A stretch of DNA of 64,000 nucleotides from a virus: positions 64,001 through 128,000 of the IMG/VR virus record IMGVR_UViG_3300031669_000002. One strand, written 5' to 3'. The notes below the pieces were generated by a model. The model made no database searches. It saw only the letters and a list, made by a program, of their open reading frames with translations, and was not told the origin of the DNA. A program made the position numbers and the translations under genes. Below, in pieces: positions 8,796 to 47,929 of this stretch. Each line of letters begins with the position of its first letter. Position 1 is the stretch's first letter.

Positions 8796-10562
8796 TCCAT
8801 TATCTCCTACCCATGAGGTGTAACCGTTTTCCTTAATCACACGAAGTATATTAGATACGCGACTAGTTAATTCATCTTTGTGTGAGATAAGCCAAATACT
8901 CTTGTCTGTTTCTCTAACCATTCTCTTTAAAATTGACATTGAGCTTTCTACACCGCTCGAGTCCATACCAGAGTCGATAAGTTCGTCAATTATAAGCAAG
9001 TTGATTGGCTCATATAGTGATTCATAAACATCTCTAAATGCTAAAGACAGCGCCAAGATAACTCGAGTCATTTCACCTCGAGATAAATTGTCAAAGTCAA
9101 GATCTCTGCCTAATTCTTCAATCATAACAGTTAAGTCATTTTGGAACACTACCGTGTGAGGTAACCCAATCTTATCCAAGTAAGTTGATAGTCGAGAGTT
9201 TAAGTAAGTTAAATTTTGATCAATGATGCGCTTACGAATAAAGCTATCCTTGTTAGTTAGCAACTTGAGCAATAGTTCTTGATGCTCTTTGCGACGAGTC
9301 ACTTCATTGATGATAGAATAGTCAATCTCTGCCAACGCAGTAGTTTCCATTTCGTGTATCTGATCAGTGTATGGATTTTCAGTGGCAATCTTGCTTTCGA
9401 GCTGTTTCTCTAGGTGCCCAACAGTGGTCTTATGATGAGTAGCATCCTCAAACTTTTTGTATGAGGTTTTTGGTCGGTTTCCAAGTTCTCCTATCTCCAA
9501 GACTGCTTCTGTCAGACCATCAACATACGCTATAAGCTCAATGACCTTATCTCTATGCTCTTGTAGAGAGGCATTTTTTGAATCAAGAAGAAGTTGTTGC
9601 CTATCATCGTGAATGTCCTGCCCACAAGCGTGACAGGTATGATTTTCTAACTGATCAATGTCCGGCAAAAGTTTATCAATCCCCTTTTGCTCACGCTCAA
9701 GATCTTTCTTAGCCCGAGACAGCGTTGTCTCTAAGTCTGCTATGTCTTTCTGTTTCTGTAAATATTTTTCAAGTGCTTTGTGATTATCTATTTCTACGTC
9801 AATGTCAACCTTCAATAAGTCTTCAAGTTGATCTGTAAGGTCTTTGATCTCTTCTTCAAACTTCTTTTCCCATATTCTTTGACGACGACGCAAAGATTCT
9901 ACTTGCTCTTCAATTTTCTTATTAGCTTCTATTAAAGCAGCAATGCGATACTCTTCGCTTGTGATTAGATCCTTTGAAATTCTAACTTGTTCCTTAAGCG
10001 TATCTGCTTTTTCACTAAGCATCGTAATGCCAAGTAACTGTTCGATAATGCTACGCTGATCACCTGCCTTCATCTTAAGGAACGGTTCGGTGTAGGTATT
10101 CAGTGCGAGAACATGTCTGAACATATTGTGTGACATGCCAATAATTCTGTTTATCTCATGTTGTGTTTCACGAGAGTCGCCCTGTGAGTCACTATCCTTC
10201 GACTCAAACGCAACATTGCCCTTATAGAGCAACAATACGCCGGGCTTGCGGCCACGCTCAATGCGGTAGGCAATACCATTCTTCTCAAACTCAACAGTAA
10301 CTATCATACCCTTGCCGTTAGTGAGATTTATAAGATTATCTTTTTTGATATCCGATATGGCAGTCCCATATAGAGCGTAAGAGAGCGTTTGTAAGATCGT
10401 GCTTTTACCTGTGCCGTTTCTGCTACCAGCATCATCTCCGCCGAGATCTAAATTCTCACCTAAGACCAGTGTTAGGTCATTGCGGTCGAGATTGATTGCT
10501 TGTGATACGTTTCCTACAGATAGAAAATTCTTCGCTGTGATTGATTTTAGTTTCAGTGCCAA
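8793..10562 (-). CDS. gp46: Recombination ATPase, SbcC/Rad50-like (T4 gp46)
   Basis: Walker A NGTGKST, long coiled coil with CHAC zinc hook, signature LSRGE, Walker B LLIIDE, and ISH motif. Confidence 0.93.
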   Translation of the reverse strand: MALKLKSITAKNFLSVGNVSQAINLDRNDLTLVLGENLDLGGDDAGSRNGTGKSTILQTLSYALYGTAISDIKKDNLINLTNGKGMIVTVEFEKNGIAYRIERGRKPGVLLLYKGNVAFESKDSDSQGDSRETQHEINRIIGMSHNMFRHVLALNTYTEPFLKMKAGDQRSIIEQLLGITMLSEKADTLKEQVRISKDLITSEEYRIAALIEANKKIEEQVESLRRRQRIWEKKFEEEIKDLTDQLEDLLKVDIDVEIDNHKALEKYLQKQKDIADLETTLSRAKKDLEREQKGIDKLLPDIDQLENHTCHACGQDIHDDRQQLLLDSKNASLQEHRDKVIELIAYVDGLTEAVLEIGELGNRPKTSYKKFEDATHHKTTVGHLEKQLESKIATENPYTDQIHEMETTALAEIDYSIINEVTRRKEHQELLLKLLTNKDSFIRKRIIDQNLTYLNSRLSTYLDKIGLPHTVVFQNDLTVMIEELGRDLDFDNLSRGEMTRVILALSLAFRDVYESLYEPINLLIIDELIDSGMDSSGVESSMSILKRMVRETDKSIWLISHKDELTSRVSNILRVIKENGYTSWVGDNG

Positions 10563-12380: not shown

Positions 12381-13842
12381 ATCCCTTAACACTTCCTGCT
12401 GGTTTTTTGATTGTGCTACCACCAAGTTCCGCTGGTTCCTTGCTTTGCCCAATATTTGGTTTAGCTATTTTCTTCTTTGTGGGAACCTTCTTTGTTGCTT
12501 TTGGCTTGTTGTTAGTTAAGAAATAACTCATGATCTGTTTTTTATAGTCGTCGACACTAACTGCAACATATTCACCTAAAATACATACTTCGTGTCCTGA
12601 TTTTAGTGCTGCAACCAAGTTAGTATTTAATAGTCCAAATTTCTTAATCATTGCAGACGCAGCAGCTTTATTAGGCGAGATTTCTTCTTTTTTCTTTATT
12701 ACTGCAATGGTCTTCTTTGCCTCTTTAACCTGAGACGAAAGTTTCTTTACTTGCGGCACAGACTGACTTAAGGTTAGGAATGCCTCAGCCGTCTCTAGCG
12801 CCACACGGTAAATTTTCTTTGTATCATCATTCCAATAATCTATATCGTCCCACTTTGACAGCAATTTACGAAATGCTTTCATTGCAGGAGATTTTTTTAG
12901 TGCCACTTTTTCAGTTTTCTCCTCGGTGTCATATATTAAATTATCTAATTCATTACCAAAGTCGTCAAAGACATCAGCAAACTCGTAGTATGCATCCTCT
13001 GGATCAAGATGATTTCTATCTACGTCTGATATACTGTTTAAAACTAGGTCTTCCTCTTTTGTTGACCACGTAAAGTTAAACCCGTCTTTAGGAAATATGG
13101 CATAGATGTCCCCGTAATTACCTGCTTGGTCCTCATCAGACGTTGTAAAAATGCTATTTGACCTTAATGCCGAAAACCCCATCATCGTAAGATACTTGTC
13201 GTAAAGTTTTTGCGCTTGTTCAGATGAGTCTTTTGTCCTTCTATTTTCACGAGGATACCCAACAAAGATTGGAGCTTGAGAGTCTCTTTGTCCACGATAT
13301 AGTATTTTTCCTGTCTCTCTAACTGCTTTCAGATATTCTCCGCAGTTTGCCTCAATATATGCAAAATATTTAAGTGTCTTTTCGTCAAAAATTGGATTAA
13401 TTTTTGCGTGTTCTTCCGCCGCCTTTTCAGCAGCTCTTGTTGCTTTCTCTTTTGCTGCATTTAGCTTTCTAATTTCTTCATTGTGGGCTGCAATCTTATC
13501 TTGTAATGCTTTAATTTGAGCCTGTTTTTCGGGCGAGGGTAGATATTTTGCTGCTGCCGCCGGATCTATTGCGATATTTGGGGTATCTATACGATAGCTC
13601 TTTCCCGGCGAGACCTTCATATTTGGTTTTAAGGTCTTAAAGTTAGGATCATACTTGCTTAACACATTGGTCAGAAATGTTATTGGGTCCTTAGCCGCAT
13701 TTGCGTTAGCAACAAGCTCCTCGACGGCCTTATTATATTCTGGACTATTAAGCCATCTATAAGTAGTCCGAAACTTATAGTTCTGAGTAATAAGGTCTAA
13801 TAGTTTTTTTGCTTCTGGTATTTTGTTGATATTGTGTGCCAT
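12370..13842 (-). CDS. Putative ADP-ribosyltransferase-fold protein
   Basis: LYRG ... SIFTTS ... AGNYGDIYAI ... GHEVCI gives an R-S-E-type arrangement; Lys-rich tail; late promoter 4 nt before the ATG. Confidence 0.45.
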   Translation of the reverse strand: MAHNINKIPEAKKLLDLITQNYKFRTTYRWLNSPEYNKAVEELVANANAAKDPITFLTNVLSKYDPNFKTLKPNMKVSPGKSYRIDTPNIAIDPAAAAKYLPSPEKQAQIKALQDKIAAHNEEIRKLNAAKEKATRAAEKAAEEHAKINPIFDEKTLKYFAYIEANCGEYLKAVRETGKILYRGQRDSQAPIFVGYPRENRRTKDSSEQAQKLYDKYLTMMGFSALRSNSIFTTSDEDQAGNYGDIYAIFPKDGFNFTWSTKEEDLVLNSISDVDRNHLDPEDAYYEFADVFDDFGNELDNLIYDTEEKTEKVALKKSPAMKAFRKLLSKWDDIDYWNDDTKKIYRVALETAEAFLTLSQSVPQVKKLSSQVKEAKKTIAVIKKKEEISPNKAAASAMIKKFGLLNTNLVAALKSGHEVCILGEYVAVSVDDYKKQIMSYFLTNNKPKATKKVPTKKKIAKPNIGQSKEPAELGGSTIKKPAGSVKGFKV

Positions 13843-13857
13843 ACCTTATTTATCCTA

Positions 13858-14766
13858 CTATTCTTCGTAATGACCGCCATCGCTACCGTGACCACCTGAA
13901 CCCTGACGACTAAAACTTGGTGTCAAATCATTGATTTCGAGTATGTCATCGCGTATGTTTTGATTACGCTTCTCAATATTGAGAACACGAGTAAATGAAT
14001 TCTGCAGGGCCATCGTATAGTAAGCAAATGGGTTAGCCGAGACAGATTCGTCAAACTGCAACCCAATCTGACTTAACTGAAGCAGAGCAGTTGATTTCAT
14101 TTCGTCTACATAGGTATATCCCCGCCAATTTGATCGCGTTGCATAACGCTCACATAACTTCATATACATTAGCGCAAGTTTATTAGTGACCTTGCCGTGA
14201 TCTTTACTAAATTCCCCACGTTCTAAGTCACCTACCCAATGACTTTTGCCGACACAAACCGATTCCCCTGTAGCATCTACAATAAAATGCTGAAACGGTT
14301 GAAAATTAACCTTAACATATTTTACTGGGGCAACAATTGCAACAACTAGTTCCTCATCCTCAAAAATATCAACCGAGTCATCGATGACTAAGCCTTTAGA
14401 TTTTTTGGTTTTCGCCGCTTTGGGTATAGCTGCTGGCGCCTCTGGGATATGATCCCAAGTCATTAGTCGAAAAACTACATCTTGATCGCTTATTGTTGCA
14501 GGATCAACTGCAACCGAATCAGCTTTAACTTTTTTGCCTAATGCTCCGGCAGCATCTACGGCAAGCTTTGTAAGGCGATCAGCCCTAGCAATTTTTGCTT
14601 CAGATTTTTCTCCGCCCTTCATTAGCTTGGGTATTTCCCCCAAACTTCTAATAATAACGTCATAGTCGCTATATTTTGGGTCAGCATAACTGCAATATGA
14701 GACTTTGCTCTTGTGTATCTCTTTTAGAATGTCTTTATTGTTTAAATAATTTTGAACACGGGCCAA
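13858..14766 (-). CDS. gp55: Late-transcription sigma factor (T4 gp55-like)
   Basis: NYLNNKD N-terminus, NWRGYTYVDEM, QFDES.SANPFAYYT...NSFTRVLNIEKR; positioned upstream of gp47/gp46 as in T4-like phages. Confidence 0.85.
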   Translation of the reverse strand: MARVQNYLNNKDILKEIHKSKVSYCSYADPKYSDYDVIIRSLGEIPKLMKGGEKSEAKIARADRLTKLAVDAAGALGKKVKADSVAVDPATISDQDVVFRLMTWDHIPEAPAAIPKAAKTKKSKGLVIDDSVDIFEDEELVVAIVAPVKYVKVNFQPFQHFIVDATGESVCVGKSHWVGDLERGEFSKDHGKVTNKLALMYMKLCERYATRSNWRGYTYVDEMKSTALLQLSQIGLQFDESVSANPFAYYTMALQNSFTRVLNIEKRNQNIRDDILEINDLTPSFSRQGSGGHGSDGGHYEE

Positions 14767-14767
14767 T

Positions 14768-15484
14768 TTATTTCTCCTTTTTTCTTTCGTGTGCTGCTCT
14801 TCTTGCCTCTGACCACGGTTTCCCCTTATTGGGAGACGGTTGCCCTATTCTCTTTAATGCATTTACCTGATTTGCTTTCTTCAGATTTGCGATCCATTCG
14901 TCATTAAATGGTGCTCTTGCTTTTCCTTGTTGCCGATTAACAAGTGACTTTTTGCGACGTAATGCTTCTTCTTTACCGTAAATCTCCTCCCAGGTCTTAC
15001 CCTTCTTAGCGAGTGACTGTAATTCCCTCGCTTTATCATCTCTTTTCTTACCCGAATTTGAAATACCGATTTTAATTTTGGTTTCTTCCAGACACGGTTT
15101 CCTCTCTCTATTCTTAGCAGCAATAGATCTTTTCTTACGAGTTTCGTCTGATTCGTTACGTTTAGCTGCGGCCATTTTTTCTCGTGTTTCTTTTGATGGG
15201 TTCCGTAGTCCTTCTCCGCCATCTGTTTTATTATTAAGGATTCCGGTCCCTATATCTTTTCTTCCATAGTCTGATATTAGGCATGTCTCTATGAATAGCG
15301 CCATATCCTCAGACAGATTAGTATATAAAAATTGAATAAATGACTTATCTGTGGGAACAGGAGCATTCCTATGATCTTCGTTGATCCTATTATTCTTCCC
15401 TTTACCGATATAGTATGGTGTTCCTGCTTTTGCTGTTGCGGAATCTTTACTTCTTAGATACGCATAGACATAATAAATATTCAT
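14768..15484 (-). CDS. GIY-YIG homing endonuclease (paralogue of 8021-8731); probable start 15484
   Basis: First 29 aa almost identical to the 8021-8731 protein ([15 protein letters not shown](A/K)[13 protein letters not shown]); LNNKTDGGEG; NUMOD3-like repeats. Confidence 0.88.
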   Translation of the reverse strand: MNIYYVYAYLRSKDSATAKAGTPYYIGKGKNNRINEDHRNAPVPTDKSFIQFLYTNLSEDMALFIETCLISDYGRKDIGTGILNNKTDGGEGLRNPSKETREKMAAAKRNESDETRKKRSIAAKNRERKPCLEETKIKIGISNSGKKRDDKARELQSLAKKGKTWEEIYGKEEALRRKKSLVNRQQGKARAPFNDEWIANLKKANQVNALKRIGQPSPNKGKPWSEARRAAHERKKEK

Positions 15485-15551
15485 GCTGATGTCCCCTTGG
15501 ACAGTAGAGCAGTTGGATACTGATAATATCGCGAACTGCATATCTTATTTA
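15485..15551 (-). promoter_or_regulatory. HEG leader, copy B
   Basis: TAAATA-agatat-GCAGTT-cgc-GATATT-atc-AGTATC-c-AACTGC-tcta-cTGTCC-aagg-GGACA-tcagc-ATG. Confidence 0.75.
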
Positions 15552-15592
15552 TCCGAGAAACGTATATTCAGATAATTAACAACTCTGGCCAT
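15545..15592 (-). pseudogene. Orphaned original 5' end of the sigma gene (MARVVNYLN-IRFSDK*)
   Basis: 8 of the first 9 aa match the sigma start MARVQNYLN with different codons; it has its own AAGGAG SD. Confidence 0.8.
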
Positions 15593-15616
15593 ATTGGCTC
15601 CTTATAATGTAAGCAC

Positions 15617-15646
15617 ATAATAACATTAATAAATACATAATATCAA
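15617..15646 (-). promoter_or_regulatory. Host sigma70-type promoter upstream of the sigma-gene relic
   Basis: TTGATA-18-TATTAT with an extended TG; overlaps a + strand TAAATA at 15630-15635 that serves the baseplate operon. Confidence 0.5.
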
Positions 15647-15659
15647 GGGGTTATAAAAA

Positions 15660-16505
15660 ATGTCTAGCTTATTAGGTCTCACTGGTTTAACGACTATTGC
15701 CACTAGCGGAGTAAATAGTATCAATTCGGTAGGTCAATCGCTTGCCAATACACTCGATCCAAGCAACATAAGAAAAATGGCTGCTGGATTAGGCATAATG
15801 AGTGCCCAAGGACCGTCAAATAACCCTGCCGCAAAATGGGTCGATACTGGAGTAAGTGGTTCGTCTGCCGAAAACACAGACTGGAGAATAAAGGTATCGC
15901 TTGCTAAATCAGCTGACATCTTTTATTTAGCGACGGCAACCGGCGATGATCCTGGAATTTTATCACCCCTCAATGCAACAGGCGGAGTTGTGTTTCCTAT
16001 TACGCCTACATTGCAGATTACGAATACTGCGAGATATACTTCTTCACCTCTTACCCATAGCAATTACGCAATGCAGTTTTATGAAGGAAGTGAGGCAGGT
16101 TCAATTATGTTAAACGGGGAATTCCCAATCCAAACTATTGCAGAGGGACAATATCTACTAGCAGCCATTTATTTTTTTAGAGCATCTACAAAAATGTTTT
16201 GGGGAAATGAAGGTTTGGCTGGATCTCCTCCGCCAATGGTATTTTTAAGTGGGTACGGAGATTACTACTTCCCTAATGTTCCGTGCGTAGTAACAAACTT
16301 TATGCACACGATGCCAGAAAACGTAGATTATATTGATATACCAGTAAAGAGCAACAGCAATATGAAACTTGCTGGTTCGACTAGATTGCCACTGCAAAGT
16401 ACATTGCAGGTAACATTGCAACCAATATACAGTAGAACAAGTTTGACCAAATTTAAACTGACAGATTTTGCAGCAGGAAAAATGATCGGTGGAGGATTCA
16501 TGTAA
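15660..16505 (+). CDS. Baseplate / tail-tube initiator protein (gp48-like)
   Basis: DWRIKVSL, GVVFPITP, THSNY and FFRASTKMFWG motifs; first gene of the baseplate cluster. Confidence 0.55.
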   Translation: MSSLLGLTGLTTIATSGVNSINSVGQSLANTLDPSNIRKMAAGLGIMSAQGPSNNPAAKWVDTGVSGSSAENTDWRIKVSLAKSADIFYLATATGDDPGILSPLNATGGVVFPITPTLQITNTARYTSSPLTHSNYAMQFYEGSEAGSIMLNGEFPIQTIAEGQYLLAAIYFFRASTKMFWGNEGLAGSPPPMVFLSGYGDYYFPNVPCVVTNFMHTMPENVDYIDIPVKSNSNMKLAGSTRLPLQSTLQVTLQPIYSRTSLTKFKLTDFAAGKMIGGGFM

Positions 16506-47154: not shown

Positions 47155-47162
47155 AATTTGCA

Positions 47163-47228
47163 TAAATAGTAATGTAGTTCGCGGAGCAGCAACTCCCAAC
47201 TACTCTAACATAAAAGGACTATATCAGT
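47163..47228 (+). promoter_or_regulatory. HEG leader, copy C
   Basis: TAAATA-gtaat-GTAGTT-cgc-GGAG-cagcaa-CTCC-c-AACTAC-tcta...aaagga..atcagt-ATG; compensatory change relative to copies A and B. Confidence 0.75.
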
Positions 47229-47929
47229 ATGTGTATTTATTGTGGTCCACTAAGTATCGAAACATTTATAAGAAACATTACGGCGCAATACCAAACGATT
47301 CTGATGGACGAACCTATGATATACACCATATTGATGGAAATCATTCAAATAATGCACCAGAAAATTTAAAAGCAGTAACTATCCAAGAACATTATGATAT
47401 TCATTATTCTTGTGGTGACTGGGCTGCTTGTTTGAGATTATCGGCAAGAATAAATTTGAATCCTGCCAGAATTAGCGAGTTAGCCAGAAAAAATTCTTTA
47501 GAGAGAGTTGCTAACGGAACACATAATTTTTTAGGTGGAGAAATTCAACGAGAATCTACTAGAAGATACGTAGCAGAGGGAATACATAATTTCTGCAGGA
47601 GATCGGACGGAACAAGTTTAACATTAGATAGAGTTGTAGATGGCACTAATCCATTTTTAGGTCCAGAAAACAATAGAAAAAGAATAGAGGATGGATCTCA
47701 TCATTTTTTACGCAGTAATCTATCCGAAGTTACTTGTCCTTATTGTGGTAAAATAGGCAAGCAAAACATGAAAAGATATCATTTTGATAATTGTGTGGAA
47801 AATCCTAAATCAACCCGCCAGAAAGTTACAAGTCATCAACGAGGGAAAACATATGAAGAACTTTATGGAATAGAAAAAGCATTAAAATTAAAGAAAGCAA
47901 AACAAGGAAGACCAAAAACTAGCACTTAG
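47229..47929 (+). CDS. HNH homing endonuclease, possibly frameshifted near its start
   Basis: YDIHHIDGNHSNNAPENL...EHYDIH HNH core and CPYC...HFDNC tail in the 47231 frame; the leader-aligned ATG at 47229 is in a different frame. Confidence 0.75.

Follow-up and report, generated by a model that had tools for sequence, protein, structure and literature searches.

The 64,000-nt stretch analysed here (hereafter, the window) spans positions 64,001 to 128,000 of the IMG/VR virus record IMGVR_UViG_3300031669_000002, a 178-kb phage record that is roughly half-complete. At the locus of interest, whose features all lie on the minus strand, a gene for a late sigma factor is directly preceded by a gene for a GIY-YIG-type homing endonuclease, and upstream of the latter stands a second, truncated copy of the beginning of the sigma gene (Table 1). 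The TAA stop of the endonuclease is separated by one base from the TTG (14766) with which the sigma gene opens. At the other end, the endonuclease starts as MNIYYVYAY at 15484, after a 60-nt leader; an ATG at 15541 is an in-frame upstream alternative devoid of a ribosome-binding site (RBS), and both homologues and PHROG matches begin at the 15484 ATG.

An earlier note on this DNA, based on the letters alone, had described an RBS plus ATG opening a mini open reading frame (ORF), MARVVNYLN, that stops inside the TAAATA of the element, and a new RBS plus TTG, followed by codons for MARVQNYLN, that opens the intact sigma gene. Both read as described (ATG at 15592 and TAA at 15547..15545 for the former; AAGGAG at 14779..14774, TTG at 14766 and a 302-aa ORF for the latter), and the architecture of the locus is certain. 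Over nine codons, the upstream copy (the stub) and the downstream copy (the replacement) share 18 of 27 bases, the codons differing by three synonymous changes, one amino acid replacement (V to Q) and ATG versus TTG. The replacement codons 1–9 join codon 10 of the intact sigma gene, so that the junction reads NYLN/NKD.

The stub ORF, its TAA stop and the 15541 ATG share the frame of the endonuclease ORF, and a single stop codon bars an extended frame of 257 aa; this is probably a coincidence.

Table 1. Features of the sigma locus in the window (positions are those of the window)
Feature	Position	Strand	Basis
Native sigma-70-type promoter, now 5' of the stub (TTGATA, 18 nt, TATTAT with TG)	15617..15646	-	Consensus scan, 10/12 matches with TG; alignable to the block conserved 5' of endonuclease-free sigma genes; function presumed
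Native RBS of the original sigma start, AAGGAG	15598..15603	-	TAAGGA/AAAGGA in relatives, at equal distance from the start codon
Relic of native sigma codons 1–9, MARVVNYLN (ATG at 15592)	15566..15592	-	Same final codon in L167/L079, L168, L169, L259 and L292
Mini-ORF of 15 codons: relic plus six cassette codons (IRFSDK)	15545..15592	-	TAA at 15547..15545, inside ATAAATAA
Inserted cassette, ~826 bp, starting directly behind relic codon 9 and ending with replacement codon 9	14740..15565	-	Spacing of the NYLN anchors; boundaries fixed by L079 versus its endonuclease-free sisters
ATAAATA late-promoter-like motif, left cassette end	15546..15552	-	Distribution of copies in the window; recurrence in six complete loci
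Leader hairpin	15509..15539	-	Same fold before other endonuclease genes of this genome and in L169
GIY-YIG-type homing endonuclease gene, 238 aa (GGGGA 7 nt before ATG)	14768..15484	-	PHROG 15526, 10829 and 314; motif residues; structural matches; dN/dS
New sigma RBS, AAGGAG, within the last codons of the endonuclease gene	14774..14779	-	Sequence
Replacement sigma codons 1–9, MARVQNYLN, TTG start, cassette-borne	14740..14766	-	Sequence; comparison with L079
Intact gp55-like late sigma factor gene, 302 aa, beginning MARVQNYLNNKD	13858..14766	-	PHROG 12791, PHROG 234
Divergent virion structural gene, marker of the native neighbourhood	15660..16505	+	PHROG 12050; directly divergent from sigma in 77/80 related loci

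The 302-aa product of the intact gene belongs to the gp55 family (E = 1.7e-79 with PHROG 12791, 3e-21 with PHROG 234); it had no Pfam match. By tblastn it matched annotated late sigma factors of jumbo and T4-like phages, being 45% identical to that of the Pseudomonas jumbo phage PA5oct group. Whole-protein similarity searches provided 80 viral-contig and 80 metagenome loci (labelled below by L-numbers), and in every one of them NYLNN(K/R)D is encoded a few codons after the start. The set used for sigma comparisons contained 145 distinct sequences, of which seven are invaded, i.e., have an endonuclease directly upstream of sigma, and 138 are endonuclease-free. Upstream of the endonuclease-free sigma genes there is a conserved promoter-like block, then TAAGGA or AAAGGA, with the promoter region running straight into the gene. 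In the window, it is the sequence before the stub that matches this conserved block of the 138 alleles, and the -10 element there is extended.

Comparison with endonuclease-free alleles, which the earlier note had named as a check, found the upstream mini-ORF in none of the 138 relatives and identified the region 5' of the stub as native sigma upstream sequence. In the window, and likewise in each of the five relatives whose contig includes the region upstream of the endonuclease, a second 12-mer coding for NYLN lies within 1.5 kb 5' of sigma, which is the case at none of about 150 endonuclease-free loci; at an estimated expectation of ~0.004 per locus, such an occurrence is not due to chance. 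The relic ORFs vary in length among loci, and two have lost the start or gained a stop, which is the behavior of a remnant and not of a conserved peptide. The native promoter, the RBS and the first nine codons of the sigma gene persist upstream as an unused stub.

The same arrangement recurs in other phages. A profile search with an alignment of the window and L079 endonucleases retrieved L167, L168 and L169, and a metagenome scan added L259, L292 and L246 (L167 is the same phage as L079, on a 329-kb contig, and the L246 locus is truncated). In all, a related endonuclease immediately precedes 7 of the 145 distinct sigma sequences, those of the window and of six further phages from metagenomes. 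At each of the six complete loci, namely the window and the five others whose left junction is visible, native sequence (the upstream region and the start) continues as far as the NYLN Asn codon; it is followed by 2–13 unrelated bases, ATAAATA, the endonuclease gene and a new start (TTG, ATG, ATT or GTG), from which the first eight or nine codons are re-encoded and then joined to NKDILKEI. The NYLN anchors are 826 nt apart in the window versus 648–736 nt in the five other complete loci. At four loci the end of the endonuclease ORF and the new sigma start occupy the same bases in different frames (8 nt in L168, L259 and L169; 20 nt in L292, where the endonuclease stop comes one base short of the codon 9 end), implying that the replacement start is physically part of the inserted cassette. 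It is the cassette, then, that supplies the translation start of sigma.

On the tree of the 145 sigma sequences, the presence of the element requires at least five gains or losses. As is the case for homing elements, the insertion site is shared by different genomes, while the element is sporadic among close relatives. A search for a duplicated downstream-gene start at ~80 other loci with endonuclease homologues found none, meaning that the trick is confined to the sigma-site subfamily and does not characterize the endonuclease family as a whole. Nor was any relic of the upstream gene's end found in the 336-nt gap behind the paralogue at 8021-8731. That gap (window 7685-8020, minus strand) contains an ORF of ~65 codons, rich in Ala, Lys and Arg and starting with MSATHQAILD, which falls under the 70-aa calling cut-off.

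The L079 allele, in the sigma tree, is nested with full support among the endonuclease-free L072, L074, L075 and L076. With respect to these sisters, left homology stops inside the stub and right homology restarts at the NYLN codons. When the alleles were compared over 30-nt intervals, 16–17 of 30 positions were identical in the first interval and ~27 of 30 in every later one, the latter being also the level observed among the sisters themselves. Since the low identity is confined to the first interval, the foreign tract corresponds exactly to the duplicated codons 1–9. The L079 stub has lost its start and its first three codons are decayed; its last six codons, as read from the alignment, are identical to those of sister L072 at 15 of 18 positions. 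The relic is hence closer to the sister allele than to the inserted copy, as in the fungal mobile ORFs (mORFs) considered below, but here the duplication is N-terminal rather than C-terminal, which is a difference in kind.

Where the stub is intact (four loci), 19 synonymous codons, two replacements and one indel distinguish it from the replacement copy, and synonymous sites between lineages are saturated (dS, the synonymous divergence, is at least 1). An unused stub drifting to such saturation would be wrecked, yet four are intact, which argues that the two copies diverged as working starts in different genomes. The simplest reading of these sequences would be that the replacement start diverged in another phage and then travelled with the endonuclease.

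The endonuclease matches PHROG 15526, 10829 and 314, although the last of these, annotated as 'homing endonuclease', was hit only at E = 1e-4. The residues expected of a GIY-YIG enzyme (GIY, YIG, Arg, Glu and Asn) appear as YVY, YYIGKG, R33, E66 and N85 and are invariant in seven homologues; a profile search aligned a GIY-YIG protein from the PDB on the same motifs at E = 0.03. A model of the N-terminal domain was predicted with a pLDDT (local confidence score) of 70, and when it was compared by VIA-align with 48,161 chains, the top three were all GIY-YIG proteins: PD-T4-3 (Z 6.1, root-mean-square deviation 3.3, 72 aligned residues), the UvrC GIY-YIG domain (Z 5.2) and I-TevI (Z 4.9). These are modest scores, all with Z <8. 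The ratio of nonsynonymous to synonymous substitution rates (dN/dS) among sigma-site endonucleases is 0.13-0.31. With its catalytic positions invariant, dN/dS in this range and GIY-YIG proteins as the best folds, the enzyme looks intact. The sigma-site endonucleases are each other's closest full-length relatives, and no cultured phage carrying this subfamily was found. A single-sequence PDB search of the endonuclease returned only chance matches to ribosomal proteins.

As for the expression signals, ATAAATA occurs 23 times in the window; 14 copies fall in the 5% of the sequence that is intergenic, and 15 lie within 80 nt 5' of a same-strand gene, structural genes included. It usually stands 5-50 nt before the gene start (e.g., at 15629 (+), 22175 (+), 26350 (+), 53239 (+) and 13853 (-)). 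An intergenic, upstream-of-gene distribution of this kind would fit a T4-like late promoter, the motif resembling T4 TATAAATA (PMC2988022), and makes ATAAATA the candidate late promoter of this phage group. Together with the leader hairpin, the motif is common to the three endonuclease genes of the window (at the sigma site, at 8731 (-) and at 47231 (+)). The hairpin fold recurs, with compensatory stem changes, in L169 and ahead of the genes at 8731 (-) and 47231 (+); it leaves the endonuclease RBS uncovered. Because no terminator was predicted anywhere from the native promoter to where the sigma gene ends, read-through from the native promoter is plausible.

The earlier note had also proposed that the element, by placing a late promoter before a late sigma gene, could create positive feedback. 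ATAAATA is indeed credible as a late-type promoter; the novelty of the loop, however, does not stand. Among uninvaded alleles, a same-sense ATAAATA is found upstream of sigma in 24/130 (18%) and TAAATA in 46/130 (35%), so that the insertion creates no new feedback loop.

The first bases of the cassette, ATAAATA included (15545-15565 (-) in the window, and likewise in L167, L168, L169, L259 and L292), loosely resemble the displaced native codons 10-13, in a tract that is AT-rich and of low complexity. In T4, the I-TevI operator overlaps the late promoter of I-TevI and resembles its homing site. By analogy, an I-TevI-like operator serving autorepression is conceivable behind the resemblance.

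The ORF at 47231 (232 aa; window 47162-47929 (+)) has the ATAAATA, leader hairpin and C-terminal modules of the GIY-YIG genes at 8021-8796 (-) and 14768-15552 (-), together with an N-terminal domain that looks HNH-like (HHIDGN...N). This combination suggests a swap of nuclease domains within one expression and DNA-binding chassis.

We consider it probable that the best-conserved stretch of the late sigma gene has become the home of a site-specific mobile cassette, inserted between codons 9 and 10 without the help of an intron or intein. The proposal of the earlier note, that an element landed around codon 9 and repaired the gene by means of a copy in different codons, is borne out to this extent by the uninvaded alleles, the six further loci, the foreign tract of L079 and the failure to detect an intron. 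The cassette would consist of a late-type promoter, a leader hairpin, the GIY-YIG endonuclease gene, an RBS, a start codon and re-spelled codons 1–9. During mixed infection, the endonuclease would cut uninvaded alleles at or near the codon 9/10 pair, and the break would be repaired from an invaded genome, with the stub and upstream region serving as the left arm and the sigma gene from codon 10 onward as the right arm. Repair would copy the cassette in, so that the first codons of the recipient become a stub in their turn. An invaded allele would escape cutting, as its site is split and the reconstituted coding junction has a different spelling and upstream context. Two promoters would serve sigma: that of the cassette, and the native one by transcription across the stub and the endonuclease gene. 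Moreover, with the sigma start signals lying inside or overlapping the endonuclease gene, a simple deletion of the latter would kill an essential gene, and retention would be favoured.

Cleavage, homing and immunity of the re-spelled copy are steps that we infer from the sequences. The junction predicts a target spanning the NYLN/NKD codons. Some base preferences may reflect it: the last base of codon 9 is T in 6/6 stubs (versus 33% of the 138 uninvaded alleles), the third base of codon 10 is T in 6/7 invaded genes (versus 38%), and the Leu codon is TTR in 4/7 replacements (versus 23/138, or 17%). Coming from few, related sequences, these biases are hints. That the re-spelled TTG copy is immune is our working hypothesis.

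Several observations weigh against this picture. L079 is the only invaded locus with close uninvaded sisters; L168 and L033 are too diverged (~79%) for their comparison to show a boundary, and the window allele is without a near-identical uninvaded counterpart, since no relative of its sigma in the viral or metagenome collections exceeds 68% identity. The endonuclease matched no Pfam family at E up to 10, thus leaving the curated GIY-YIG model unmatched, and a Foldseek search against the PDB yielded nothing significant (E = 0.8 or worse). Endonuclease identities between loci broadly track sigma identities, which would allow for a long vertical association with occasional loss. Finally, no position separates the replacements from all uninvaded alleles: the replacement codons lie within natural variation and carry no clear immunity signature, and in the case of the T4-like MobA element (see below) such polymorphisms alone did not block nicking (bioRxiv 10.1101/2022.08.31.505936).

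Vertical association is at the heart of one alternative, whereby the cassette would be the fossil of a single faulty, one-sided break repair that captured the endonuclease and sigma start of a donor and was then inherited vertically, repeatedly lost and no longer homing. The broadly parallel divergence of endonuclease and sigma agrees with it, as do the decayed stubs of L079 and L292, which imply long residence. However, six lineages have an identical junction, for which the tree requires five or more changes; the very close endonuclease-free sisters of L079 would call for a precise recent loss; four stubs are still intact despite saturated synonymous sites; and purifying selection acts on the endonuclease, whose catalytic positions are invariant. 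We deem a fossil improbable, albeit a faulty first event followed by regular homing would fit the mobile-cassette reading and may account for the origin of the element. A different origin for the re-spelled codons would be duplication of the nine codons in place, at insertion, with the working copy later re-spelled under selection to escape the nuclease or repeat-mediated deletion. Under this scheme one could understand why stub and replacement in the window both begin with MARV, which occurs in none of the other 144 sequences, why the stub and replacement peptides are identical in L168 and in L259, and why TTR leucine codons are enriched in replacements (4/7 vs 23/138); the homologous region of MobA, too, is reported to be re-copied from the resident gene (bioRxiv 10.1101/2022.08.31.505936). 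Yet in L168 and L259 six/eight codons changed synonymously beside an unselected stub that stayed intact, which would take very strong and fast selection, and the L246 start context, AAA ATT CGY, is that of L168 and L259 even though the L246 sigma belongs to the clade of the window. In-place duplication thus appears unlikely to us.

The mini-ORF might instead be a functional leader peptide or upstream ORF that tunes translation of the endonuclease or sigma on read-through transcripts. The window stub does keep a strong RBS and ATG and ends 3 nt before the in-frame ATG and 60 nt before the endonuclease start, and the start codon is retained in 4/6 stubs; beyond NYLN, however, neither length nor frame nor stop position is conserved, at two loci the start is gone or a stop has arisen, and endonuclease-free relatives have no such ORF, all of which makes this role very unlikely. 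An intron, finally, has hardly any credibility. Short N-terminal exons beside endonuclease genes are known in phages, as in the ICP1 terminase (PMC10448857), and the stub could in principle be the first exon of a gene interrupted by a self-splicing intron that houses the endonuclease; but only one base lies between the endonuclease stop and the sigma start, the downstream gene has its own RBS, start and full N-terminus, two stubs are decayed, and no Rfam intron, group I included, was found in 13800-15700 at E up to 10.

The start-replacing cassette is a mirror-image variant of fungal mORFs and of certain phage elements, its closest precedents being the mORFs and T4 MobA. Fungal mitochondrial mORFs create gene hybrids, for instance in atp6 of Allomyces macrogynus and in atp6, atp9, cox2 and nad3 of Glomus (PMC3630166). 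As in our cassette, an endonuclease ORF lies inside a protein gene together with a diverged duplicate of the displaced gene end, and the native end is left as a relic that is closer to the sister allele than the inserted copy is; our argument for the foreign origin of the replacement is also the one made for the Allomyces atp6 end and the Glomus hybrids (PMC3630166). The mORFs, however, replace C-termini in organelle genomes and mostly encode LAGLIDADG enzymes, whereas the cassette replaces a phage N-terminus, and must for this reason also carry an RBS and a start codon, besides its own promoter.

The MobA element, composed of mobA and the gene 60 bypass cassette, resembles our cassette in occupying a fixed site in an essential gene across several clades with close uninvaded relatives, in encoding a diverged copy of a segment of the target gene, in having the new downstream ORF overlap the endonuclease ORF out of frame, and in showing element identities that broadly follow host-gene identities (bioRxiv 10.1101/2022.08.31.505936). 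Unlike our enzyme, MobA is an HNH endonuclease; with its element the gene comes to encode two polypeptides, the native segment is lost and a 50-nt translational bypass is required, while at the sigma locus the gene is whole (a single 302-aa ORF with no coding gap), the native segment is kept as a stub and there is no bypass. The MobA element of T4-like phages is reportedly also the subject of Bonocora et al. 2011. Free-standing T4 seg and mob endonucleases and I-TevI include GIY-YIG enzymes, are patchily distributed, have late promoters and leader hairpins 5' and, as with the cassette, embed signals for essential neighbour genes in the endonuclease gene, favouring retention (PMC2988022). However, they lie between genes or in introns, none being described with a replacement gene start and stub, and in the T4 cases reviewed the hairpin covers the RBS, which the cassette hairpin does not (PMC2988022). 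Insertion into an essential coding region without intron or intein is known for nrdA/mobE of Aeh1 and gene 43 of phage 25 (PMC2988022), but there two polypeptides reassemble, whereas here a nine-residue N-terminal piece is discarded and re-encoded.

In the literature searched, we found no description of a start-replacing cassette with a native-start stub in a phage. It is possible, though we hold it to be rather doubtful, that such cassettes form a distinct, propagating class of phage homing elements, a third way into essential ORFs besides introns and inteins, which in the present case rewired the master late regulator by placing the translation signals of sigma inside the endonuclease gene and a late-type promoter before both genes. 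If so, the element would be addictive, and expression of endonuclease and late sigma would be coupled in a feed-forward loop. More generally, the locus illustrates how, with no splicing involved, a free-standing homing endonuclease can settle in the best-conserved codons of an essential phage gene by carrying the gene start along, and it documents the exchange of gene segments between diverged, uncultured jumbo phages. With seven natural examples at one common junction, and with four uninvaded sisters for one of the invaded phages, the target is predictable to a few bases and immunity directly testable.

For annotation, the locus calls for some caution, since gene calling can easily go wrong on the short upstream ORF and on starts other than ATG (TTG, ATT). 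In at least 16 endonuclease-free relatives (L001, L002, L005, L006, L014, L018, L023, L028, L037, L047, L049, L055, L060, L062, L071 and L073) no ATG, GTG or TTG occurs in the sigma frame from the upstream stop to the conserved N-terminus; at the position of the ATG of other relatives there is an ATT, 7-8 nt after AGGAG and ~12-15 nt before the NYLN codons. The late sigma gene of many of these phages thus seems to start with ATT, which is also the cassette-borne replacement start in L168, L259 and L246.

The surroundings of the sigma gene host other insertions. At L053:865-1422 (+), a different ORF, of 185 aa, is located between the structural gene and sigma, 5' of an intact native start and with no duplication, indicating that the same intergenic region also accepts ordinary between-gene insertions. 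At L043:3959-4483 (+), a locus that shares its contig with L189, an endonuclease homologue stands immediately 3' of sigma rather than inside its start.

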